Position numbers and translations under genes: made by a program. Source: an uncultured Candidatus Saccharibacteria bacterium (lineage in GTDB: Bacteria > Patescibacteriota > Saccharimonadia > Saccharimonadales > CAYLGV01). From it: a stretch of DNA of 64,000 nt. Where the stretch lies: NCBI GenBank assembly GCA_964394925.1, contig CAYMZG010000003.1, positions 40,414 to 104,413 on the forward strand, in the 5' to 3' direction. Every line of letters starts with the position of its first letter. Position 1 is the first letter of the stretch. The notes under the pieces are model-generated. The model searched no databases and had not been told where the DNA came from. It was given only the letters and a program-made list of their open reading frames with translations. Of this stretch, positions 3,717 to 59,911 are shown piece by piece.

Positions 3717-6284
3717 ATGAGTAAAAACGTGAAACGCCTCCTTGATCAGTTTGTTCCGAAGAATTACCAATTAGCCCTTGATATTGACCGTGACGACATG
3801 ACCTTTACCGGGAGCGTTACCATTGAAGGGCAAAAAGTTGGTCGCCCCAACCAGCGCCTCACCTTTCACCAGAATGGCCTCGAAATCACCGCAGTGCATG
3901 TTGTAAAACACGATAAATCTGGGGATCACGAGGTAGCGATCGATCGCATCAACCACCACAGCAAATTCGACGAAGTCCGCCTGCATGCCACGCACATGCT
4001 CTACAACGGTAGCTACAGCGTGCGCTTGGAATTTAAGGGGAAGATCACCCGCCAAATGAATGGTGTGTATCCCTGCTTCTTTGCACATGACGGAAAAGAG
4101 AAGCAGCTTATAGCAACTCAGTTCGAATCCCACCATGCCCGTGAGGTCTTCCCGTGTATCGATGAGCCTGCCGCCAAAGCTACCTTTGAGCTCACCCTCA
4201 CCACACCAGCCGGCGAAACAGTTCTATCGAATACGCCAGCCAAGAAGGGCGTCGAAAAAGCCGGGCGCCTGGTAACCACCTTTGAGCCTACACCCCACAT
4301 GTCAACCTATTTATTGGCATTCATCTTTGGTGAACTGGGCTATAAAGAAGCCAAGACCAAAGACGGTGTCGTGGTACGTACCTATGCGACGCCAGACAAT
4401 GTGGCATTCACCGAGTTTGCTTTGGAAGTGGCCGTTAAGTGCCTTGAATTTTACGAAGAATACTTCGACATTAAATATCCGCTCGAAAAGTGTGATTTTA
4501 TTGCGCTGCCTGATTTTGCCTCGGGTGCCATGGAAAACTGGGGTTGTATTACCTTTCGTGAGCAAGCTATGCTCGTTGACCCGAAGAACAGTACGCTGGC
4601 TACCAAACAATATGTGGCATTGGTTGTCGCTCACGAGCTCACGCACCAGTGGTTTGGCAATTTAGTCACCATGCGCTGGTGGTCCGACCTATGGCTCAAC
4701 GAAGGCTTCGCCAGCTGGATGGAATACCTGGCCGTTGACCATCTGTACCCCGATTGGCAACTTTGGACGCAATTCGTAGTAGACGAGCAACAGCAGGCCC
4801 TCAAGCTAGACGCGCTCGAACATACCCATCCAATTGAAGTTCCGATCCACCACCCTGATGAGATCCGTACCATTTTTGATGCCATCAGCTACAACAAAGG
4901 TGCCAGCGTGATTCATATGTTGCACGAATACCTTGGGCACGAAGCCTTCAGGGATGGTCTCAGGCACTATCTGTCGACACACAAGTATGGCAACACCGAC
5001 ACCATTGATTTATGGGCTAGCCTCGAGAAAATATCTGGCAAACCGGTGCGTGACTTTATGCATTCATGGACAAGCTTGCCTGGCTACCCGATTGTCTCGG
5101 CAACTGTTAGCAATAAATCGGTCTCATTGCGGCAGGAGCGGTTCTACACAAACCCTGACCACAGCAAAGCCGAGCCCACCAACTGGCCGGTTCCACTCCT
5201 CGCGTCCGAGAGCGCACCAGATACACTCCATGAATCAACAACTTTATTTGCCATCCAAGATGTTGCAAACTTCAAACTCAACAGTGGTCAAAGTGGTTTT
5301 TATCGGACTGTTTACGATCCAGAGCAACTCGAACGTCTTGGTGCGCTCATAAAACAAGGCACCTTGCAGCCACTCGATCGGCTTGGTGTGCTTTTTGATC
5401 TGTTCGAGGCAGCCAAGGCAGGCTACGCCAAAACATTCGATGCTCTTCAATTCCTTGACAACTTTGCGGCTGAGGACAACTTTGCCGTTTGGGATGCCAT
5501 GACCGCTTCGATTGGCAGTGTGCGCCTCATAATGGGCGACGAAGACTTGCGAGAAACCATGAAGCCCTATATTCGTAAGCTTGTGGCCGTGCAGTTAAAA
5601 CGCCTGGGCTGGAAGCAGCGTAAACAAGATAGCCACTTTGATAAGCTCATGCGACCAATCATTTTGAGCCTTGCAGCAAGCGCAGATACCAAGGAAGTAG
5701 TAGACCAATGCTTGACGCTCTTCGATTCAATTGATGAAACAAGCGGCACGAGCAGTATTGACCCTGACCTGCGCGGCACCGTCCTTAGCACTGCCGCTCG
5801 GCTCGGCAACGAGCAAACCTTTAATAAACTTGTGCGCCTCCATAATGCCTCGAGCCTGAGCGAAGAACGCCTAACGATCGCGGCAGCTATTACTGGCTTT
5901 AAGCAGCCTGAACTTATCGAACGTTCCCTGAGTATGATCGACAGCAAGGATGTTCGCTTGCAGGATGTAACATTTTGGATGGCCTATAGTTTTATGAATC
6001 GTCATGCCAAGCACACAACCTGGCAGTGGCTCAAAACACATTGGTCGTGGCTGCAAGATAATCTGGGCAGCGACCTGAGTTTTTATCGTATGCCAATTTA
6101 CGCTGCGCGCGTTTTTGCCGACAAGGACTTTGCTCACGAATATACAAGTTTCTTTAAGCCCAAGATGTCACCCGCGCTTGAGCGTTCCTATAACCAGGGC
6201 CTGGAGATGCTGAGCTGGCAAACCGCCTGGCGTGACCGCGCTCTCGAGGAGACTAAGGCGTTCTTTAGTTCAAAAGCTAAATAA
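3717..6284 (+). CDS. pepN: aminopeptidase N, M1 family zinc metallopeptidase
   Basis: 855 aa with GAMEN exopeptidase motif (SGAMENWG), HELTHQWFG...WLNEGFA zinc site and a C-terminal ERAP1-like helical domain. Confidence 0.93.
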   Translation: MSKNVKRLLDQFVPKNYQLALDIDRDDMTFTGSVTIEGQKVGRPNQRLTFHQNGLEITAVHVVKHDKSGDHEVAIDRINHHSKFDEVRLHATHMLYNGSYSVRLEFKGKITRQMNGVYPCFFAHDGKEKQLIATQFESHHAREVFPCIDEPAAKATFELTLTTPAGETVLSNTPAKKGVEKAGRLVTTFEPTPHMSTYLLAFIFGELGYKEAKTKDGVVVRTYATPDNVAFTEFALEVAVKCLEFYEEYFDIKYPLEKCDFIALPDFASGAMENWGCITFREQAMLVDPKNSTLATKQYVALVVAHELTHQWFGNLVTMRWWSDLWLNEGFASWMEYLAVDHLYPDWQLWTQFVVDEQQQALKLDALEHTHPIEVPIHHPDEIRTIFDAISYNKGASVIHMLHEYLGHEAFRDGLRHYLSTHKYGNTDTIDLWASLEKISGKPVRDFMHSWTSLPGYPIVSATVSNKSVSLRQERFYTNPDHSKAEPTNWPVPLLASESAPDTLHESTTLFAIQDVANFKLNSGQSGFYRTVYDPEQLERLGALIKQGTLQPLDRLGVLFDLFEAAKAGYAKTFDALQFLDNFAAEDNFAVWDAMTASIGSVRLIMGDEDLRETMKPYIRKLVAVQLKRLGWKQRKQDSHFDKLMRPIILSLAASADTKEVVDQCLTLFDSIDETSGTSSIDPDLRGTVLSTAARLGNEQTFNKLVRLHNASSLSEERLTIAAAITGFKQPELIERSLSMIDSKDVRLQDVTFWMAYSFMNRHAKHTTWQWLKTHWSWLQDNLGSDLSFYRMPIYAARVFADKDFAHEYTSFFKPKMSPALERSYNQGLEMLSWQTAWRDRALEETKAFFSSKAK

Positions 6285-9278: not shown

Positions 9279-10877
9279 TTAGCCAACTACGCGGTAGACT
9301 TCTTCGAGTGTGGTTTCGCCATTGATCACTTTTAGAATGCCGTCTTGAAGCATCGTACGCATACCGCTCGCGATGGCTGAAGCTTCAATCTCTTGGGCGG
9401 TTGGCTTCTTGCCTGAACCAAGTAATTCGGCAATCTTGCCGGTCATCAGGAATTGTTCGCGCAAAGCCAATTGGCCCTTGTAGCCATAGGGGTTTTCGGC
9501 CGAGGAGCCAGGGTTAAACAGCTGTAAGTTATCAAGGTTGGGGCGATCAACACCTGGCGGCAGATTGTCTACAACCGTACGGATTTTTGCGAGTGTTGCT
9601 TCGTCGGGTGAATAAGCCTGTTTGGTAGCGTCATCGAGCCGTCGGACCAGGCGTTGTGCCATCACCAAACGAATTGCCGACACAAACAAAGGATTCTCGC
9701 CAATGATATCCATCATACGCGTGAGGGCTGCGGCCGCTGAGCTGGCGTGAAAGGTTGAAAGTACCAGGTGACCCGTGAGTGACGCCTGCAGAGCAGTCTT
9801 GGCCGTATCCATGTCGCGAATCTCACCAACCATGACTATGTCGGGGTCAAGGCGCAACACAGCGCGCAGCTTGTTAGCGAAGCTAGTGTCCTGTGAGTTC
9901 TGACTCGTAACAGATATCTGGGTAATACCATGGAACTGATATTCAACGGGGTCTTCGATAGTGATAATCTTGCGCTCTTCGCTATTAAGGCTGTTCAGCA
10001 TAGAGTACAAAGTAGTTGTCTTACCTGAGCCAGTTGGACCAACGACCATAACCAAGCCGCTTGGTTTCATGACAATATCATCTACAATCGCCCGCTCAGA
10101 GGGCGACAAACCGAGTCGATCAAGGTTATACATTGACTGGTCCAGGTTGAACAAACGCATCACGACATCGATGCCATTAACTGTTGGTACGGTTTCGAGG
10201 CGCACATTAATGTCAACCTGCGTACCGTCGGCCATAGTAACCGCCTGAGCAATATGTCCCTGTTGAGCATCCGGCGCGGCCGTGGAGACATTGCCGGCAC
10301 TTGCGATAGCAGAAATCAGAATGCGGTACTTTGTGTGATCTATTTCGGCAATCTTATGGAGCACCCCGTCGATACGAAATCGGATACGAGCGTTGGAGCG
10401 TTGAGTTTCTAGGTGAATATCTGAGGCGCCCAGTTGGTGAGCCTGTTTAATAAGATAGGCCAGCATGTCGTCGGCTTTAACTTGTTCAAGCGTCGATGAC
10501 ACTTGTTTGACTTGGTCTTCGCTACCAGCTTGAGATAGTGAAATATCATGATACTCAACCTGCTTGGGAGGATCATACAGACGCATGTACTCCCGGTAAC
10601 CTACGTCGGAAATCAGTACAAAAGCGGTACGTACATCGGCAAAGCGGCTGCGCAACATGGACATTGTTTGGTTTGAAGTGTTGTTGGTAACCCCAAAAAT
10701 GATGCTATGCTCTTCGGCGCGAAGTGGTATTACCCGTAGTTGATATAACTCTTCTTTGGTGAGGATATCTTTGTACAGCGGCTTCTCACCCGTTGACGTA
10801 TCAAAATACTGCAGATTCAAGATCTGCGCACGTCGCTGCGTGCTGAGTTCGTCGTCTCGCCTGGCGTCTTGGCTCAT
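9279..10877 (-). CDS. pilB: GspE/PilB-family type II/IV secretion (type IV pilus assembly) ATPase
   Basis: 532 aa with a T2SSE N-terminal domain, Walker A GPTGSGKTT, Asp box, Walker B (IVMVGEIRD) and His box (GHLVLSTFH). Confidence 0.9.
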   Translation of the reverse strand: MSQDARRDDELSTQRRAQILNLQYFDTSTGEKPLYKDILTKEELYQLRVIPLRAEEHSIIFGVTNNTSNQTMSMLRSRFADVRTAFVLISDVGYREYMRLYDPPKQVEYHDISLSQAGSEDQVKQVSSTLEQVKADDMLAYLIKQAHQLGASDIHLETQRSNARIRFRIDGVLHKIAEIDHTKYRILISAIASAGNVSTAAPDAQQGHIAQAVTMADGTQVDINVRLETVPTVNGIDVVMRLFNLDQSMYNLDRLGLSPSERAIVDDIVMKPSGLVMVVGPTGSGKTTTLYSMLNSLNSEERKIITIEDPVEYQFHGITQISVTSQNSQDTSFANKLRAVLRLDPDIVMVGEIRDMDTAKTALQASLTGHLVLSTFHASSAAAALTRMMDIIGENPLFVSAIRLVMAQRLVRRLDDATKQAYSPDEATLAKIRTVVDNLPPGVDRPNLDNLQLFNPGSSAENPYGYKGQLALREQFLMTGKIAELLGSGKKPTAQEIEASAIASGMRTMLQDGILKVINGETTLEEVYRVVG

Positions 10878-39631: not shown

Positions 39632-40078
39632 TTATTCGATTTCTGCCGGGCGCGCTAGTTGCTGCATCACAGCAAGGTAGCTCTCGAGTTGGTCAGGGTC
39701 AATTGAAGCGCTCAACGCCTCGAAAGCCAACTGCGAATCAAGCTCCATATTTCCAAGCAATCGCCTGCCCTTCAGGGTGACTTGCACTTGCCTACCGCGA
39801 TGATCGTCATGTGCAATATGTTGTTTACACAGTTTTTTCTCGATCAGTTTTGCAATCAGCGCCGTCGCTTGTGGCAGCGCAATATTGAGTCTGTCCGCAA
39901 TCGCGCCCATACGAATACCTTCTTTAGGCGCATCAGCGATTGTTGAGAGAGCCAACCATTCTATCATCGTTAGTGAGTAACGCTGTAACTCGGGCTCAAT
40001 AGCAGCTTTAAGCGCCCGCTCCGCTTCGTTGTACATGAGAAAGAACTCAGACATCGAAGGCGGAAGTTGCTTGCTCAT
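39632..40078 (-). CDS. MarR-family transcriptional regulator
   Basis: 148 aa with a winged HTH (IRMGAIADRLNIALPQATALIAKLIEKKL...DHRGRQVQVTLKG). 4-nt overlap with trxB. Confidence 0.85.
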   Translation of the reverse strand: MSKQLPPSMSEFFLMYNEAERALKAAIEPELQRYSLTMIEWLALSTIADAPKEGIRMGAIADRLNIALPQATALIAKLIEKKLCKQHIAHDDHRGRQVQVTLKGRRLLGNMELDSQLAFEALSASIDPDQLESYLAVMQQLARPAEIE

Positions 40079-49712: not shown

Positions 49713-50210
49713 ATGGCACAATTTAGTTTCGATATAGTGAGTGAATACGACAAGGCTGAGATGAACAATGTCTTTGATCAGGCGCAGCGCGAGATTGCCA
49801 GTCGCTATGACTTTAAGGGCACGCCGGCCGAACTTGACTGGCTCAATAGTGATAAAACCGGGTTGAAAGTGACCGGCAACGGTGATTGGCAAATTGACGC
49901 CATACTTGATATTGTTCGCAAGAAATTAGCGAGCCGCGGGCAATCTCAGAAGGTACTTGATACGTCGCGTGAGATGACTGTCAGTAACCTTAAGACCACG
50001 CAAGAGGTTCCGTTTAAACAGGGGCTCGATCAAGACAAAGCCAAAAAGATAACGTCGCTAGTGCGTGACAATTATCCAAAAGTCAAAACACAAATTCAGG
50101 GTGATACTGTGCGCGTAATGAGTGGCAGCAAAGATGATTTACAGGCCGTAATGCAACTCGTTCAGGCCCAGGATTTTGACTTCCCAACCAGCTTCACAAA
50201 CTACCGCTAG
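49713..50210 (+). CDS. yajQ: YajQ-family nucleotide-binding protein
   Basis: 165 aa reading MAQFSFDIVSEYDKAEMNNVFDQAQREIASRYDFKGT, the typical YajQ N-terminus. Confidence 0.9.
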   Translation: MAQFSFDIVSEYDKAEMNNVFDQAQREIASRYDFKGTPAELDWLNSDKTGLKVTGNGDWQIDAILDIVRKKLASRGQSQKVLDTSREMTVSNLKTTQEVPFKQGLDQDKAKKITSLVRDNYPKVKTQIQGDTVRVMSGSKDDLQAVMQLVQAQDFDFPTSFTNYR

Positions 50211-52860: not shown

Positions 52861-53959
52861 CCAAATCTCCTCCTGGGCGATCTAATAAAGCGGACTCAAC
52901 ACCAACCGATTCACCGGCTATGCGGTAAATGTCGGTGTCCACTTTTTGAAATTCTTTATTGGCTGAATTGTAATGGTTGACTGTAGTGCCGAGCGAGTTT
53001 CCGAGTTTTTCCATGAAGGTTTTATAGCCATTTAAGTGACGCCCCAATTGACCAATACGAAGTTGGATATCTTTAGCCTGCTCTTCAATCTGTAGTGCCC
53101 GCAGACCTTGCATAACCGTTTGTAAATACGCCATAAAAGTGGTCGGGCTCACAATAATCACATTCTTGTCCCTGAAGGCATACTCCATCAAATCACGTGC
53201 CGACGTACCCGAACTGCCAACTTTGTTAATTAACAGATCATAATAAATTGCTTCACTCGGAATAAACATGAAGGCGTAGTCCATGGTTTTTTCTTTAGGG
53301 CGTATATATTTAGCTGTTTCATCAATGCGATTTTTAAGGTCGGTCTTAAACGTTTTGGCTAATGCTTCTTTGCGGGCTTTATCAGTTTCCTCGAGCATGC
53401 GGTTATAATTTTCGAGACTGAACTTGCTATCGACCGGCAACACCTTGCCATCTAGTTTTACGATGGCATCTACAATTTCGCCGTCTTTGAATTTGTATTG
53501 CATGCTATAGCGATCGGGTGGTAACACGTTTTCGAGCACTTGGCTTAGGTAATACTCACCGAGTACACCACGCTGCTTTGGATTAGCTAGAACGTTTTGT
53601 AGCACCTTCAATTCGCCGGCGATATCACCAACCTGCTGGTTAGTCTTTTCGAGCGCTGTGAGTTTTTGTGTAACGTCCTTAATAATCTCAGAGCTTTGAG
53701 CGAATTGCTTCAGCATCTGCTGGTTGTTCTTATCGAGGCGTTCATTCAGTTGTGTGTTGAGGCCATCTTTGAGCTGCGTAACACTATCTGTTAGATTGGT
53801 CAGATCTTGTTTGAGTAATAATGCAGCATTGTCGTCACCACGCTCCTGGGGGCGACGCATAAGCAATGCGAGCATAGCCACACACAGCACCCCTAAAACT
53901 ATCACCGATATAAGCATGAGAATATTGTACCATTTACTCTGGGATAAAATGGTGTGCAA
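52853..53959 (-). CDS. rmuC: DNA recombination protein RmuC
   Basis: 368 aa with an N-terminal TM helix, coiled coil and a C-terminal RmuC nuclease-like domain (MFIPSEAIYY). The track start is TTG 53959; ATG 53917 is an alternative. Confidence 0.9.
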   Translation of the reverse strand: MHTILSQSKWYNILMLISVIVLGVLCVAMLALLMRRPQERGDDNAALLLKQDLTNLTDSVTQLKDGLNTQLNERLDKNNQQMLKQFAQSSEIIKDVTQKLTALEKTNQQVGDIAGELKVLQNVLANPKQRGVLGEYYLSQVLENVLPPDRYSMQYKFKDGEIVDAIVKLDGKVLPVDSKFSLENYNRMLEETDKARKEALAKTFKTDLKNRIDETAKYIRPKEKTMDYAFMFIPSEAIYYDLLINKVGSSGTSARDLMEYAFRDKNVIIVSPTTFMAYLQTVMQGLRALQIEEQAKDIQLRIGQLGRHLNGYKTFMEKLGNSLGTTVNHYNSANKEFQKVDTDIYRIAGESVGVESALLDRPGGDLDD

Positions 53960-54731
53960 TTAACACAGCCGCACCAACAATAAGAGCACCGAGGATAACG
54001 AGGACAACCTGCCAGTCAATCAATTTCTTCTCATTACGCGATTGATTAATGCTTGGGATGATATCGCTGGCAGCGATGTAAATAAAGAAGCCGGCGGTTG
54101 AGCCAATCAACACCGCCAAGAGCGTTGTTGAGTGACGACCAAGCGTGTAGAAGAGTACCGTACCAAGAGCGGTAACGGCAATCGCCACCCCGTGAACTGC
54201 CAGTACGCCACGCCTGCTTAGCCCTCGCTTGAGCAAATAGCCTGAATCGGCCATTTCACGCGGGATCTCATGCATTGCAACTGCTATGGTGGTTATAATA
54301 CCTGCGCTAATGCTCACGAGAAACGCCGCCGCTATCGCAGCGCCGTCTATGAAGTTATGAAGCCAGTTACCGCCCGCCGCCAAAGCCACTATTGGATCGG
54401 CTTCATGATGATGCGCATCACTGCCCGACGCCGGCTCGAACGGCTCTTTACTGTGGTGGTGGAACCAGTGCAGCCAACCCTCGAGCACAAAGAAGAAAAG
54501 CAAACCTACCAGAGCCGCCAGCAATACCGTAAGCGGTTCGTAGTGCTCAACACCGTCATGTAAAAAATCCAGGAACGCTGCAGCGAGCAATGCCCCAGCG
54601 GCAAATGGTGTCGCATACTTCGTTAGGAAGGCGATGGTTTTTTTATGCGTTAATAGAACAACACTACTCAAGAAAACGACTATATCCCCCGCTAGGGAAA
54701 TTGTTAGAACCAACCAAAGAGGTGCAATCAT
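53934..54731 (-). CDS. ZIP-family divalent metal (zinc) transporter
   Basis: 265 aa with a His-rich loop (HWFHHHSKE...DAHHHE) and HNFIDGAA / HEIPRE motifs. Confidence 0.9.
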   Translation of the reverse strand: MIAPLWLVLTISLAGDIVVFLSSVVLLTHKKTIAFLTKYATPFAAGALLAAAFLDFLHDGVEHYEPLTVLLAALVGLLFFFVLEGWLHWFHHHSKEPFEPASGSDAHHHEADPIVALAAGGNWLHNFIDGAAIAAAFLVSISAGIITTIAVAMHEIPREMADSGYLLKRGLSRRGVLAVHGVAIAVTALGTVLFYTLGRHSTTLLAVLIGSTAGFFIYIAASDIIPSINQSRNEKKLIDWQVVLVILGALIVGAAVLIAHHFIPE

Positions 54732-54818: not shown

Positions 54819-55286
54819 ATGGAACAAAAGTTTAGAGATACCTTGCGAGCAGCTAATGCCAGCGTTACTAAACCACGTCAGATTATTTTTGAATACCTGC
54901 AAGGTAAAGAGCCGCTGACCATGCAACAATTGGAGAAGGCATTATCCGGACAATTTGACCGCGCAAGTTTATACCGTACAATTTCGTTATTTGAACATCT
55001 GGGAATTACTCGCCGTTTACAAATGGGCTGGAAGTATAAGATTGAGTTATCCGGCCGTTTTGCACACCATCACCATCATTTAACATGTTTGGAATGCGGC
55101 AAGATCATTCCTGTCGAGAATGATAACGGTTTAGAGCGACAATTATCCATAATCTTACGCACATATCGTTTTACAGAAAGTTCGCATGAGCTAGAAGTAC
55201 GGGGATACTGTGAAAGCTGCACAAAAAATGACCCCAGGCTATTGCCCAGGGTCTTCGGAAGCCTCACACTTCCACATGCATCATAG
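54819..55286 (+). CDS. Fur-family metalloregulator (Zur-like by context)
   Basis: 155 aa with a winged HTH, a HHHHH run and two CxxC pairs (CLEC, CESC). Divergent from the ZIP transporter. Confidence 0.88.
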   Translation: MEQKFRDTLRAANASVTKPRQIIFEYLQGKEPLTMQQLEKALSGQFDRASLYRTISLFEHLGITRRLQMGWKYKIELSGRFAHHHHHLTCLECGKIIPVENDNGLERQLSIILRTYRFTESSHELEVRGYCESCTKNDPRLLPRVFGSLTLPHAS

Positions 55287-55975: not shown

Positions 55976-56992
55976 CTAATGTTTACTGGACTTTTCTTGC
56001 TGGTTTCTGAGATGTGACGTAAACACGGCGGCCGAAATAAATGAAACACCAACCAGACCCGTAACAACTTCTGGCACTTCAATTTTTACGCTGAGTAGCA
56101 AAACAACGGCAAGTGCCAAGATGGCATAGTGCGCGCCATGGATCAGAAATCGAAAATGCGCCAGCGTCCCTCGCCGTAGCAAGTGAACAGTCATGGAGCG
56201 CACAAACAGTGCCCCTATGCCAAGCCCGGCGGCAATCAAGAAAATCTTTTGAGTAATAGCAAAGGCACCGACCACCCCGTCAAAACTAAACGTAGCATCC
56301 AACACCTCAAGATACACAAAGGCCAAAAACGCAGCATGTCCGGTGGCCATGCCCTGTTTGGTCCCTTTCATGAGCAGCTCGCTAACGCCTTTTATTATCA
56401 CAAAAGCGACAGCCCCAAGTGCGGCCGCAAGGGTAATATTTGGTTCATGCGTGTCTAGCAGGTGTAGCAGCCCAATGGCAGCGACAGCTCCAACTATGGC
56501 CACCCACCACGGCTGATTAAACTCACCGAGCGGGGCCTCAACCGTATTTAGCCAGCGGACTTGGCGTTTTTCACCAAAAAACCGCAAGCCAATCATCAGC
56601 AAGAACACGCCGCCAAAGGCAGCGATGAGCGGATAAGCCTCGTGTAGCTCCTGAGCATAAGCCTCGGGGTGATGCAAGGCACTATCCCATACCGTAGTCA
56701 TACTTTGACCGCTAGTAGCGCTCACCATGACAATCGGTAGCACTAAACGCACGCCGAACACCGCAACAGCAATACCAATGGTTAAAAATAATGTTTGCCA
56801 AAGCCGAGACATGCGGCTCAACACTTCACTGTTAATGACCGCATTCTCAAAACTAAAGGTAATTTCGATGACTGCCAGCAAAAGGATTGGTATAACTGCG
56901 CTCAGGCCACCCGTCAGAGCAGCCGCAACAATCACAATCAATGAGGCGATGACTGCAAAACCATATAACCGAGACAAACTCTCTTTTGGCAT
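55976..56992 (-). CDS. DUF475 / TerC-related integral membrane protein
   Basis: 338 aa, polytopic, with duplicated EITFSFENAV... / LEVLDATFSFDGVVGAFAIT motifs. Confidence 0.8.
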   Translation of the reverse strand: MPKESLSRLYGFAVIASLIVIVAAALTGGLSAVIPILLLAVIEITFSFENAVINSEVLSRMSRLWQTLFLTIGIAVAVFGVRLVLPIVMVSATSGQSMTTVWDSALHHPEAYAQELHEAYPLIAAFGGVFLLMIGLRFFGEKRQVRWLNTVEAPLGEFNQPWWVAIVGAVAAIGLLHLLDTHEPNITLAAALGAVAFVIIKGVSELLMKGTKQGMATGHAAFLAFVYLEVLDATFSFDGVVGAFAITQKIFLIAAGLGIGALFVRSMTVHLLRRGTLAHFRFLIHGAHYAILALAVVLLLSVKIEVPEVVTGLVGVSFISAAVFTSHLRNQQEKSSKH

Positions 56993-57644: not shown

Positions 57645-57680
57645 AAAGAAAGCGACCGTCTGGGTATACGGTCGCTTATT
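57645..57680 (-). terminator. rho-independent terminator ending the GGDEF-to-secreted-protein unit
   Basis: Minus RNA AGCGACCGU-AUACCCAG-ACGGUCGCU followed by UUCUUUAU: perfect 9-bp stem (57651-57659 pairs with 57668-57676). Confidence 0.8.
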
Positions 57681-57703
57681 TTGGTGAGGGAGTTCACCGG
57701 TAA

Positions 57704-58228
57704 CTAGTTGGTTTGCGACATTGGCATCGTTGAGGAACCACCCTGGTCTCCACCAGCTTGATCCCCGTCACGATCTGGCCTGTGGCCGCCCATCATACCA
57801 TGCCCCATTGGCATATAGCCCTTAGGGATGTTATTGTCGGTTGCCCACTGCTTGAGCTCATCCATCTTAGTCTTCATAGCATCTCGACGTTCTTGTCCCG
57901 TCTTGTCTTTCAGACTGTCCATGAATGTTTTCATTTCTTGCAGCTTGGCTTTAATCGCATCAGCCTGGGCTTGCGTCAGCTTGCCATCTTTAACGGCTTG
58001 CGTTAGTCGCTCTTCCATTTTTTGCTGCCGTTCGGCTTCGTGACTGGCACGATCTTCATCGAATACTTTTTGCACATCACTCTTATTGAGATTAAATTTC
58101 TGTGCAATCTTGTCGACAAGACTGGTGCCACCCGAAGTGCTACTTTGGGCATTAACCAGGCCAGCACCTGCCACGGTAGCAATCCCTACCGTCGCCGTTA
58201 CTGCAGCAATAGCTAATGATTTTTTAAT
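57704..58228 (-). CDS. secreted coiled-coil protein with Met/His/Gly-rich tail; probable ATT start
   Basis: The track start (TTG 58294) has no SD. AAGGAGT lies 5 nt upstream of ATT 58228, giving the classic signal peptide (M)KKSLAIAAVTATVGIATVAGAGLVNA. Tail reads YMPMGHGMMGGHRPDRDGD. Confidence 0.6.
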   Translation of the reverse strand: MKKSLAIAAVTATVGIATVAGAGLVNAQSSTSGGTSLVDKIAQKFNLNKSDVQKVFDEDRASHEAERQQKMEERLTQAVKDGKLTQAQADAIKAKLQEMKTFMDSLKDKTGQERRDAMKTKMDELKQWATDNNIPKGYMPMGHGMMGGHRPDRDGDQAGGDQGGSSTMPMSQTN

Positions 58229-58332
58229 GAAATACTCCTTCCTTTTAGTTTGCCAACCGCGTTGTCGTTGTATTTCTACAAGCGACAAGCCCAATACTAA
58301 ACAAGAATTTTGAAAGAATGCTTAGAAGCTTG

Positions 58333-58605
58333 TTACTTCTTTAGTTCTTTGCGGATTTCGTCGAGCTGCTCTTTGGTGATATCGCCCTTAGCATAGCGTT
58401 CTTTGGCTATGTCGAGTGGATTAGTCGCTGTGCTGTCTTCTGACGATGTGCTGCGTTGTACTAGAATCTTAGCAACCCACACTACGCCAGCTACAACAAT
58501 CGCCAGCATCAGCAAACGAAACAGGCTCGTTACCCAAGTGTCTTCGGTGTGCTGAAACATCACGGGACTATCTTGGATATAGCGTGCTACATTCATTGCA
58601 TCCAT
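58333..58605 (-). CDS. SHOCT-domain small membrane protein
   Basis: 90 aa with a TM helix and a C-terminal AKERYAKGDITKEQLDEIRKELKK (SHOCT-like). GGAGG SD. Confidence 0.8.
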   Translation of the reverse strand: MDAMNVARYIQDSPVMFQHTEDTWVTSLFRLLMLAIVVAGVVWVAKILVQRSTSSEDSTATNPLDIAKERYAKGDITKEQLDEIRKELKK

Positions 58606-58669
58606 ATTTTTCCTCCTACCCCTAAAACTACGCCGCCTACCTGTGTCGACGCTTAGAGATGGCTACGTA

Positions 58670-59059
58670 TTAATGCCAGTTGCGTTCAATCTCGTGGATA
58701 CGGTCATGATCGAGGCCATAAAAATGAGCAATCTCGTGCCAGAGAGTGTGTTTTACCTGCGCCCTGAGTGCATTTGGATTGGGGGCAGCACGCGAAAGCG
58801 GCCCCTTAAAAATCGTTATTTTGTCGGGAATCACTAGATTGTAACCTGCTCCGCGTCGATTCAGCGGGATACCTTCATACAGCCCAAAAAGAGTCTGATC
58901 GGCCCGTAGATGTTGTTTTTGCCGCTGCTCGGGCGTTGGCTCATCTTCATACGTAACCACTACATTGTCGAGGTGCTTCATGTATTGCTCGGGCATTTCA
59001 TCCATGGCCTGGGCAATCAGGGCTTCGAATTGTTCGTCGCTTATGTCTATCACAATCAC
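58670..59059 (-). CDS. minimal zincin-like metallopeptidase (DUF1025-type)
   Basis: 129 aa with the HEIAHFYGLDH zinc motif. The N-terminus (MIVIDISDEQFEALI...DNVVVTYEDEP) is typical of the family. GTG start abuts the 26-bp palindrome. Confidence 0.85.
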   Translation of the reverse strand: MIVIDISDEQFEALIAQAMDEMPEQYMKHLDNVVVTYEDEPTPEQRQKQHLRADQTLFGLYEGIPLNRRGAGYNLVIPDKITIFKGPLSRAAPNPNALRAQVKHTLWHEIAHFYGLDHDRIHEIERNWH

Positions 59060-59085
59060 AGTATACTTAACATGTTAAGTATACT
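59060..59085. promoter_or_regulatory. perfect 26-bp palindrome AGTATACTTAACA|TGTTAAGTATACT
   Basis: Read directly. Fills most of the 38-nt GGDEF-zincin spacer and carries TATACT on both strands. Confidence 0.6.
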
Positions 59086-59097
59086 CAATCGCTCATT

Positions 59098-59862
59098 TTA
59101 ACCGAAGCGATTCCAGGCAAAGTTGTGCGTCTTGGGGTCGGCTCGTAACATCAGTTTTTTGAGCTCGACTGTACGTCCTCTGGCACGTAGATCGGCCGGG
59201 TAAACTGTTATGGTGCCGACGCGCACGCCAAGACTTTCGGAGCTCGTATAGCCAAACTGATCATTATAATCATTAAATTCCTCGAGTTCATCAAAGCCAC
59301 GCAGTATCTCATGAGCAATCTGGGTTTCAATAGCTGGCGCTTCCTTAGGAGAGATCGGAACCGTAACCACATTACCTACCCCATCATCAACATCACGGCA
59401 CAGTTGTTTAAGTACTACCATTTCGTCACCGCCAGCGCGCCCCTTAACAACTCCTTCCTCGTCTGGGAAAAGATCGTTTAACGTATGAGCCGCTGCAATT
59501 AACAATCTGTCACCATCGATATAACTTAGGTTTTCGTTAACCGGCTTGAAGTTTCTAAGATCCGTAAAAATAAACAAGATTGGCATATCTTGTCGCATCA
59601 TCGCTGCTAGACCAGATTTAAGTGCGTGGCGGTTACCAAGACCTGTCAACTCATCATTAAAGGCCTGCTCCTCGAGCTGCATCTGACATGATGTACAGGT
59701 AACACATTTACCGATTCTCGTACTGAGGGAGACCACTTCCGGGTCAGAACACTCGTCCAAGTTAAATAAACGCATGCCAACGCAAAGCTCTGCAGCTTCT
59801 GGGGTAGTAACCTCGACTTCTTGTGCCTGTGTCACGTCAACAGGAAATTTTTCAGCTGTCAT
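59098..59862 (-). CDS. GGDEF-domain diguanylate cyclase-like protein (GGDEM variant) with N-terminal Cys cluster
   Basis: DELTGLGNRHAL, FIFTDLRNFKPVNE...DGDRLL and RAGGDEMVVL. N-terminal CVTCTSC plus 2 more Cys. ATG 59862 is preferred over the track TTG 59898 because of an extended -10 located 7 nt upstream. Confidence 0.8.
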   Translation of the reverse strand: MTAEKFPVDVTQAQEVEVTTPEAAELCVGMRLFNLDECSDPEVVSLSTRIGKCVTCTSCQMQLEEQAFNDELTGLGNRHALKSGLAAMMRQDMPILFIFTDLRNFKPVNENLSYIDGDRLLIAAAHTLNDLFPDEEGVVKGRAGGDEMVVLKQLCRDVDDGVGNVVTVPISPKEAPAIETQIAHEILRGFDELEEFNDYNDQFGYTSSESLGVRVGTITVYPADLRARGRTVELKKLMLRADPKTHNFAWNRFG

Positions 59863-59869
59863 GTACATA

Positions 59870-59878
59870 ATTATGACA
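59870..59878 (-). promoter_or_regulatory. extended -10 (TGtCATAAT) 7 nt upstream of ATG 59862; leaderless candidate
   Basis: Minus strand reads TGtCATAATtatgtacATG. Confidence 0.4.
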
Positions 59879-59911
59879 TATTGTGAGTTATTTAACAATG
59901 ATTACTCTGTC

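Follow-up and report, generated by a model that had tools for sequence, protein, structure and literature searches.

A rare, stand-alone cyclase-type GGDEF protein with an unclassified cysteine head upstream of a mini-zincin gene in Saccharibacteria

1. Introduction

GGDEF palm domains are known from the canonical enzymes PleD and WspR, from the Hypr GGDEF enzymes, which carry Ser or Thr at the position equivalent to Asp344 of PleD, and from DgcZ (YdeH) of Escherichia coli, a precedent for a zinc-gated diguanylate cyclase (DGC) whose structure 4h54 is among the fold matches obtained here. The present analysis concerns a small stand-alone protein of this fold, encoded in a stretch of 64,000 nucleotides from an uncultured Candidatus Saccharibacteria bacterium (contig CAYMZG010000003.1, positions 40,414 to 104,413; this whole stretch is hereafter called the window), together with the three genes that follow it on the same strand and encode a mini-zincin (Zincin_1), a SHOCT-like membrane protein, and a secreted helical protein.

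The GGDEF protein is a rare, fast-evolving and probably leaderless stand-alone protein of cyclase type with an unclassified Cys head, and signalling of this kind is undescribed in the phylum. An earlier sequence-only reading of the window had described the four genes as one delimited and co-transcribed unit, in which the cyclase provides a signal and the protease and envelope proteins serve as effectors. By gene anatomy and synteny, the four genes do not make up a conserved system of this kind: the outer boundaries are real, but the interior does not appear to be one cassette.

With regard to the neighbouring features, no peptidase activity has been demonstrated for any member of the Zincin_1 family (PMC3890501), and the box recognized by AdcR/ZitR in streptococci and lactococci has the consensus TTAACNNGTTAA (PMC11580457, PMC6372160). 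DGC genes have been counted in metagenome-assembled genomes of groundwater Patescibacteria (PMC9938205); a literature search returned no paper linking Saccharibacteria to cyclic di-GMP (c-di-GMP). The sequences analysed were the window and a set of related loci, amounting to 572 kb for the box search. Where a single related locus has to be named, it is given an L label (L001, L002, L006, L007, L008, L010, L035, L052, L090, and L092), and two relatives of the GGDEF family are labelled P0003 and P0006.

2. The GGDEF Protein: Fold, Active Site, and Cysteine Module

The GGDEF protein matches Pfam GGDEF (PF00990) with 50 bits against a cutoff of 23.8 (E = 3.7e-13, profile positions 2-89 of 161 only) and TIGR00254 with 46.5 bits against a cutoff of 37.4. 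Residues 1-21 are disordered and are followed by a Cys module, a stalk helix (57-68), and a palm domain (~70-245). In an AlphaFold2 (AF2) model based on an alignment of eight sequences, the pLDDT is 85, with values above 88 for the palm domain and of 65-81 for residues 22-66. An earlier model, based on five sequences, was matched by Foldseek at probability 1.0 to WspR, PleD, DgcZ, GcbC, the GGDEF domain of Thermotoga maritima (4urs/4urg), and others, with TM scores of up to 0.7 against isolated GGDEF domains. Pfam, TIGR00254, AF2, and Foldseek all point to the GGDEF palm-domain fold. The domain calls of the sequence-only reading were thus borne out, by Pfam and TIGR00254 for this protein and by Pfam for Zincin_1, with the SHOCT domain falling just under its cutoff.

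Across ten aligned family members, which share only 26-50% identity, the invariant residues are D70, T73, N77, D101, F105, V108, N109, G117, R142, and G144-G-D-E147. D101 corresponds to the Mg-binding Asp of PleD (D327) and N109 to its guanine reader (N335). The motifs listed by the sequence-only reading (TDL, FKPVNE, DGD, and RAGGDEM, without an RxxD) are all present in the sequence. The active-site motif is G144-G-D-E-M148, which departs from the GG[D/E]EF signature; the distant members of the family retain the canonical GGDEF. At the site of the RxxD, the window protein reads PDEE. R-x-x-D occurs in nine of the ten members, where its distance from the motif exceeds that of canonical enzymes by two residues, and it has been lost in the window protein only. 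With its Mg- and GTP-site residues retained, the protein is most likely an active nucleotide cyclase, with DGC as the most probable kind.

All eight Cys-type members share the pattern C27-x10-C38-x17-C56-x2-C59, and the close clade has an additional C53, which yields a CxxCxxC that corresponds to the CVTCTSC cluster recognized earlier in the sequence. In the AF2 model, the CxxC stands where the stalk helix begins. The module appears to be a metal-binding-type head of no known family, and it is a reasonable inference that this N-terminal Cys4(5) module of ~40 residues is a Zn(Cys)4 or Fe-S sensor; it would be the sole part of the protein with a regulatory role.

3. Transcription Signals and Gene Order

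The start codon of the GGDEF gene lies 7 nt past an extended -10 element and has no Shine-Dalgarno sequence. This element had been taken as the upstream boundary of the unit, and it is conserved in six other loci (seven in total): L001, L002, L006, L007, L008, and L090 have TTGTT(T/A)AA...TG(C)TATAAT, with the ATG 7-9 nt beyond it. Because the -10 element directly precedes the ATG and no Shine-Dalgarno sequence is present, the GGDEF mRNA appears to be leaderless. Its promoter stands back to back with that of mgsA. The starts of GGDEF (59862), mgsA (59927), Zincin_1 (59053), and ydjM (57598) all lie 6-7 nt after a -10 element without a Shine-Dalgarno sequence, and all four genes are probably leaderless. 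At the other end, the terminator that had been described with a perfect 9-bp stem is present with a stem of 10 pairs, and an equivalent hairpin follows the secreted-protein gene in L001 (6746-6775) and L002 (9477-9506).

The promoter and terminator that delimit the stretch are thus conserved, but a further promoter and a palindrome lie between its first two genes. The homologous start of Zincin_1, GTG 59053, is found 6 nt after a TATACT -10 element. In 87 Zincin_1 loci, the ATG is mostly preceded at 5-9 nt by a TACAAT, TATACT, or TATAAT box, with no Shine-Dalgarno sequence, and because this layout holds in most of the 87 loci, Zincin_1 appears to be a leaderless first gene phylum-wide. Unlike the leaderless set, the SHOCT-like and secreted-protein genes possess strong Shine-Dalgarno sequences, as expected of internal operon genes; the AGGAGG of the SHOCT-like gene suggests an internal position in an operon, after Zincin_1.

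Gene order in relatives is in line with such a division. None of 80 more distant Zincin_1 loci, at 48-71% identity, has a GGDEF gene (tblastn and family hidden Markov model (HMM)), and the immediate neighbours of Zincin_1 in these loci are highly diverse. A YHYH-domain gene is inserted between the SHOCT-like and secreted-protein genes in L002; four extra genes are spread through the unit in L008, two of them between Zincin_1 and the SHOCT-like gene; and in L090 the order mgsA <- GGDEF -> Zincin_1 is kept, but the genes that follow are unrelated, with the SHOCT-like and secreted-protein genes missing after Zincin_1. It was also observed that the intervals at L002 7648-8832 and at L008 6721-8118 and 8568-10817 take secreted or membrane genes (YHYH, DUF8173, Cohesin-domain, and others). 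Hence, only the adjacency of GGDEF and Zincin_1 persists of the four-gene order that had been put forward for checking in relatives; the SHOCT-like and secreted-protein genes are split by inserted genes in L002 and L008 and missing in L090.

The region belongs to a conserved Saccharibacteria chromosome backbone, mgsA <- followed by -> Zincin_1 ... ydjM, DUF475/TerC, PAP2, ZIP, rmuC, in which the slot between mgsA and Zincin_1 is variable; a single rare lineage has the gene of a small, stand-alone GGDEF protein there. The neighbourhood of 15 kb is collinear throughout across loci, the order mgsA ... Zincin_1 ... DUF475, PAP2, rmuC is maintained in distant loci too, and the base composition of the region is unremarkable. 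As this wider order is kept in distant loci, the adjacency needs no explanation beyond the inheritance of a position in a variable slot. With regard to defence systems, PADLOC returned no model for the cyclase, zincin, or SHOCT proteins, and its match to the secreted protein was at chance level (E = 0.005). The absence of a model match, the 80 of 80 Zincin_1 loci without GGDEF, and the collinear backbone all depart from what is expected of a system like CBASS (cyclic-oligonucleotide-based antiphage signalling system). The coordinates of the features are listed in Table 1.

Table 1. Features of the locus in window coordinates
Feature	Position	Strand	Evidence or remark
Four open reading frames (ORFs): GGDEF gene, Zincin_1, SHOCT-like, secreted protein	57645-59898	minus	ORF list
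GGDEF promoter, TTGTTA-17-(TG)tCATAAT (-35, 17-nt spacer, extended -10)	59870-59898	minus	promoter scan
Stand-alone Cys-cluster GGDEF protein, 254 aa	59098-59862	minus	ATG 59862; Pfam and TIGR00254
Perfect 26-bp palindrome, AGTATACTTAACA / TGTTAAGTATACT	59060-59085		overlaps Zincin_1 -10 (TATACT); candidate repressor operator
Site pattern of the palindrome half-sites with 2-nt centre, TACTTAAC-NN-GTTAAGTA			
Zincin_1 mini-zincin (PF06262; DUF1025; provisional MEROPS M94)	58670-59059	minus	Pfam E = 4.5e-27, 94.3 bits
Single-pass membrane protein, 90 aa, C-terminal SHOCT-like domain	58333-58605	minus	Pfam 24.7 bits vs cutoff 27
21-nt block, GCTTCTAAGCATTCTTTCAAA	58309-58329	minus	upstream of secreted-protein gene; alignment, three loci
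Secreted helical protein	57704-58294 (ORF); likely 57704-58228	minus	signal peptide ends ...LVNA before QSS
Intrinsic terminator, 10-bp stem, 6 GC pairs, 8-nt loop, T-run	57650-57677	minus	hairpin scan
YajQ/DUF520 protein	49713-50210	plus	Pfam DUF520 E = 4e-52; NCBIfam NF003819 179.7 bits vs 146

4. Distribution and Evolutionary Rate

The Cys-cluster GGDEF family is very rare. Apart from the protein itself, a word-index search across 5.8 billion proteins returned two relatives, with 52% and 43% identity. When 1.84 billion cluster representatives were searched exhaustively by HMM, four proteins were obtained at E <= 1e-30 and ~9 matches were full-length, corresponding to ~9 lineages, in nine of which the ORF is intact. 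Only one of 185,579 species genomes was matched, and no JGI (Joint Genome Institute) metagenome contig was matched in a scan with the GGDEF alignment. These figures agree with the expectation of the sequence-only reading that c-di-GMP signalling would not be prominent in such genomes.

Among the window, L001, and L002, the neighbouring proteins share 70-89% identity and the GGDEF protein only 41-51%. The dN (nonsynonymous divergence) is 0.44-0.84 for the GGDEF gene, 0.06-0.27 for Zincin_1, and 0.07-0.11 for MgsA, and since dS (synonymous divergence) is saturated for all three genes, only relative dN is usable. With dN at 0.44-0.84 and dS saturated, the GGDEF gene appears to be still under purifying selection. 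In the Zincin_1 tree, the GGDEF-bearing loci are scattered in separate positions, which fits ancient presence followed by repeated loss of GGDEF.

5. Candidate Receptors of c-di-GMP

The YajQ protein passes NF003819, the equivalog model named 'YajQ family cyclic di-GMP-binding protein', and is the only candidate c-di-GMP receptor seen in the window. It is also encoded in L001 (12174-12671) and lies ~9 kb from the GGDEF unit, to which it is not linked. On the RNA level, Rfam had no match in the window, either to a c-di-GMP riboswitch or to another RNA family. The minus strand encodes, at 9279-10877, a PilB/GspE-type type IV pilus ATPase that was considered as a possible MshEN-type receptor; by eye, no MshEN-like c-di-GMP-binding motif was seen in its N-terminal 140 residues.

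6. Zincin_1 and the Palindrome over Its Promoter

The membership of Zincin_1 in its family is evident from the Pfam score and from the match to PDB 3E11 (E = 4.7e-23). The earlier description of a 129-aa HExxH mini-zincin stands with respect to family and HEIAH; from the homologous start, the protein has 127 aa. Its motif, HEIAHFYGLDH, follows the metzincin-type HEXXHXXGXXH in place of the family's HEXXHXXGXXD, and His118 aligns with Asp105 of 3E11, so that the position of the third metal ligand is held by an invariant His in this M94 clade.

The palindrome between the GGDEF gene and Zincin_1 has a core, TTAACATGTTAA, which is identical to the AdcR/ZitR consensus and constitutes a perfect match at 59067-59078 over the -10 element, as in AdcR/ZitR operators, where the box overlaps promoter elements. 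In L001, L002, L006, L007, L008, and the GGDEF-less L035, the arms do not vary and only the 2-nt centre does; one mismatch in the wider core is found in L010, which also lacks GGDEF. A perfect box occurs once in the window, and in the related loci eight of nine distinct perfect boxes are directly upstream of Zincin_1. On the other hand, L052 contains the same extended palindrome, ATTACTTAAC-CT-GTTAAGTAAT, at 4555-4566 between convergent gene ends and not in a promoter position. Sites with at most one mismatch to TTAACNNGTTAA are commoner in the window than in shuffled sequence (seven, including the perfect site, versus 2.1 expected). Those with one mismatch lie at 2539, 10477, 21285, 25731, 30672, and 47726, all six inside predicted genes by position.

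Intrinsic termination of the GGDEF transcript at the palindrome was also considered. An operator is preferred because the hairpin is AU-rich and has no U-tract and because what is conserved in the arms is the sequence itself, without covariation. As to a possible regulator, the only MarR protein of the window (39632-40078) was rejected as AdcR-like, its best matches being SAR2349, HpaR, and SlyA and not AdcR/ZitR. The palindrome may be regarded as a lead to a metal-responsive operator and not as a demonstration of one.

Two further observations concern metal-related genes nearby. A ZIP metal transporter (53934-54731, minus strand) is divergent from a Fur-family regulator (54819-55286, plus strand) in a Zur-like arrangement, and this pair is located ~4 kb from the unit. 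A DUF475/TerC-family gene is found at 55976-56992, within 5 kb.

7. The SHOCT-Like and Secreted Proteins

Together with Zincin_1, the SHOCT-like and secreted proteins appear to be ordinary phylum-wide genes that would form a unit of their own, extending from the Zincin_1 promoter to the conserved terminator. Orthologues of the SHOCT-like protein are 73-78% identical in L001 and L002, and the one in L008 was listed as 'SHOCT (weak)'.

The secreted protein contains a KLTQAQ motif and a Gly/Met/His-rich tail, YMPMGHGMMGGH. Its initiation codon is probably ATT 58228, located six nt after GGAG, and the alternative TTG 58294 is less likely. It was observed that no ATG, GTG, or TTG is present at 58226-58228; the conserved start is ATT in the window and in L001 and ATG in L002. 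The 21-nt block upstream of the gene moves with it in L002 past the inserted YHYH gene.

There are 702 homologues of the secreted protein across Patescibacteria, which elsewhere are found next to a two-component system or alone. In L092 (7001-9293), the gene of a homologue with 68% identity immediately precedes those of an OmpR-type response regulator and a histidine kinase, a layout that recalls cpxP-cpxRA and zraP-zraSR. The Met/His tail is conserved among close relatives only, and a weak DUF2680 match is seen in two of 25 family members. An identity with the LTxxQ envelope proteins ZraP, CpxP, or Spy is not supported, since neither the single protein nor a 25-sequence profile has a significant match to any of them in Pfam or PDB.

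8. Interpretation of the Locus

Tentatively, and with somewhat less than even confidence, we favour a metal- or redox-gated DGC that is transcribed alone, next to independent neighbours and with YajQ as the candidate receptor. The GGDEF gene would be transcribed as a leaderless mRNA from the extended -10 promoter, back to back with mgsA. The geometry of the stalk and dimer would depend on the metal or redox state at the Cys site and would in turn decide whether two GTP-loaded palm domains meet. With the family RxxD lost, product inhibition would be absent from the window protein. Recognition of the product would fall to unlinked receptors, of which YajQ may be one, and Zincin_1, the SHOCT-like protein, and the secreted protein would be expressed separately from the Zincin_1 promoter to the terminator, with the palindromic operator probably acting in repression.

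Several observations weigh against a gated and working cyclase of this kind, and many of them are equally the evidence for a degenerate, catalytically dead GGDEF domain that acts as a nucleotide- or protein-binding regulator (receptor or scaffold), or whose gene is being lost. The fifth motif residue drifts (M/A/L/M/I) within the clade of the window protein, and replacement of F by L in the motif is expected to abolish activity, as in WspR (PMC4331095), whereas DGCs that carry GGDEM have been identified according to a review (PMC8402453), so that the literature is split on the activity of such motifs. The guanine-reading Asp (D118, PleD D344), kept in the window protein, is Asn in P0003 and P0006. 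In the profile alignment, the helix that bears PleD K442/R446 (AD-x5-AK) gives way to a family-specific tail, ADPKxHxFxWN, in which K244 might substitute for the phosphate-binding Lys/Arg. The dN of the GGDEF gene is 5-7 times that of its neighbours, the RxxD is gone from this protein, and the patchy pattern on the Zincin_1 tree suggests repeated loss. The Cys module gave chance-level matches only against Pfam and PDB, the best of them (E = 0.0066) to a CxxCxxC stretch of ferredoxin-like type in 6cfw_N. Pfam scans of the window ORFs found no EAL or HD-GYP domain, as the sequence-only reading had stated, and no PilZ domain either; neither a phosphodiesterase nor a proven receptor was seen within the window. 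What speaks against a dead domain is that the Mg-binding Asp, N109, R142, and G-G-D-E are invariant through >60% divergence, which a mere scaffold would be unlikely to keep, that dN is far below the saturated dS, and that the promoter is conserved. A dead domain is considered less likely than the favoured reading.

The remaining points concern the relationship to Zincin_1. The GGDEF gene directly precedes it in all seven Cys-type loci with a gap of 34-47 bp, and in the Cys-less sister subfamily the GGDEF gene is 3-4 kb upstream of Zincin_1 on the same strand in both loci, from which a functional link between the two may be conceived; in the absence of a canonical terminator between them, read-through is possible. 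Along with the shared strand and the conserved promoter and terminator at the two ends, without a canonical terminator inside, these would be the grounds for the operon that had originally been proposed, in which the signal of the cyclase controls the mini-zincin and two envelope proteins in the manner of CBASS. That proposal is nevertheless very unlikely and is not supported as a description of the four genes: Zincin_1 has a leaderless promoter and putative operator of its own and does without GGDEF in 80 of 80 other loci, genes are inserted in L002 and L008 and absent in L090, the secreted-protein family occurs in unrelated contexts, PADLOC offers no match, and the collinearity of 15 kb means that the gene order is not specific to the four. 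Improbable, but less so, is a zinc-stress locus in which the Cys4 head senses Zn and the Zincin_1-SHOCT-secreted unit is separately repressed by Zn, the two sharing a metal signal without acting on each other. The perfect TTAACNNGTTAA core over the Zincin_1 -10, the position of eight of nine such boxes, the Gly/Met/His tail, the Fur-family regulator divergent from a ZIP transporter with a TerC-family gene within 5 kb, and the Zn-gated DgcZ would agree with this. Against it stand the lack of an AdcR-like regulator in the window, whose MarR protein is not of that type, the greater length of the palindrome compared with the AdcR box, the L052 copy between convergent gene ends, the restriction of the Met/His tail to close relatives, the lack of a ZraP, CpxP, or Spy match for the secreted protein, and the fact that Fe-S is equally possible as the metal of the Cys site. 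A slim chance is given to a circuit without phosphodiesterase, in which a Cys4 (Zn- or Fe-S-) gated GGDEF protein would report metal or redox status in an episymbiotic Saccharibacterium, YajQ would read its product, and its persistent position next to the operator-controlled Zincin_1 gene would couple it to the remodelling of envelope proteins.

If the favoured reading, a gated and separately transcribed cyclase, is true, a lone cyclase with a new metal or redox sensor head would provide a simple test system for second-messenger signalling in Saccharibacteria, which have tiny genomes and are attached to host bacteria. The picture of a four-gene system of signal plus effector is corrected, its neighbours being ordinary phylum-wide genes with a promoter of their own. 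The by-products for annotation are the leaderless promoter architecture, the AdcR-box-like putative operator on the mini-zincin gene, and the His as predicted third ligand in the M94 clade.

9. Comparison with Known Systems

Three of the features downstream of the GGDEF gene can be set beside described systems. The mini-zincin Acel_2062 (PDB 3E11) shares with the window Zincin_1 the family sequence, size, HEXXH, and lack of a signal peptide, and uses Asp105 as third ligand where the window clade has His. With the AdcR/ZitR operator, the palindrome shares the exact core, the overlap with the -10 element, the invariant half-sites, and the variable 2-nt centre; it differs in its extension to 26 bp, in its host, a Saccharibacterium, and in a window without an AdcR-like MarR protein. 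The secreted protein resembles DUF2680/YckD-like and LTxxQ envelope proteins in being secreted and all-helical, with KLTQAQ and a Gly/Met/His-rich tail, and we presume a resemblance to CpxP, Spy, and ZraP that has no significant match in Pfam or PDB.

Compared with PleD and WspR (PF00990/TIGR00254), the GGDEF protein has the same fold, Mg-binding Asp, FK-x-x-N, GD, and R-x-GGDE. It is distinguished by Met as fifth motif residue, a beta-hairpin before the motif that is two residues longer, a replaced K442/R446 helix, and an additional hairpin and helix after the motif (155-205), and only half of the Pfam profile aligns. The Hypr enzyme GacA of Geobacter (PDB 6d9m) is also among the fold matches. 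The base specificity site equivalent to PleD Asp344 varies in the present family, with Asn in two relatives, and the window protein, unlike Hypr enzymes, retains Asp there. In DgcZ of E. coli (PDB 4h54/3tvk), the sensor is a CZB four-helix bundle with three His and one Cys, combined with a canonical GGEEF and an RxxD I-site, whereas the window protein has the unclassified Cys4(5) module of ~40 residues, GGDEM without RxxD, and a different C-terminal tail. What the two have in common is small size and a shared order of parts, in which an N-terminal module of (putative, in the window protein) metal-sensor type is followed by a helix and a GGDEF palm domain.

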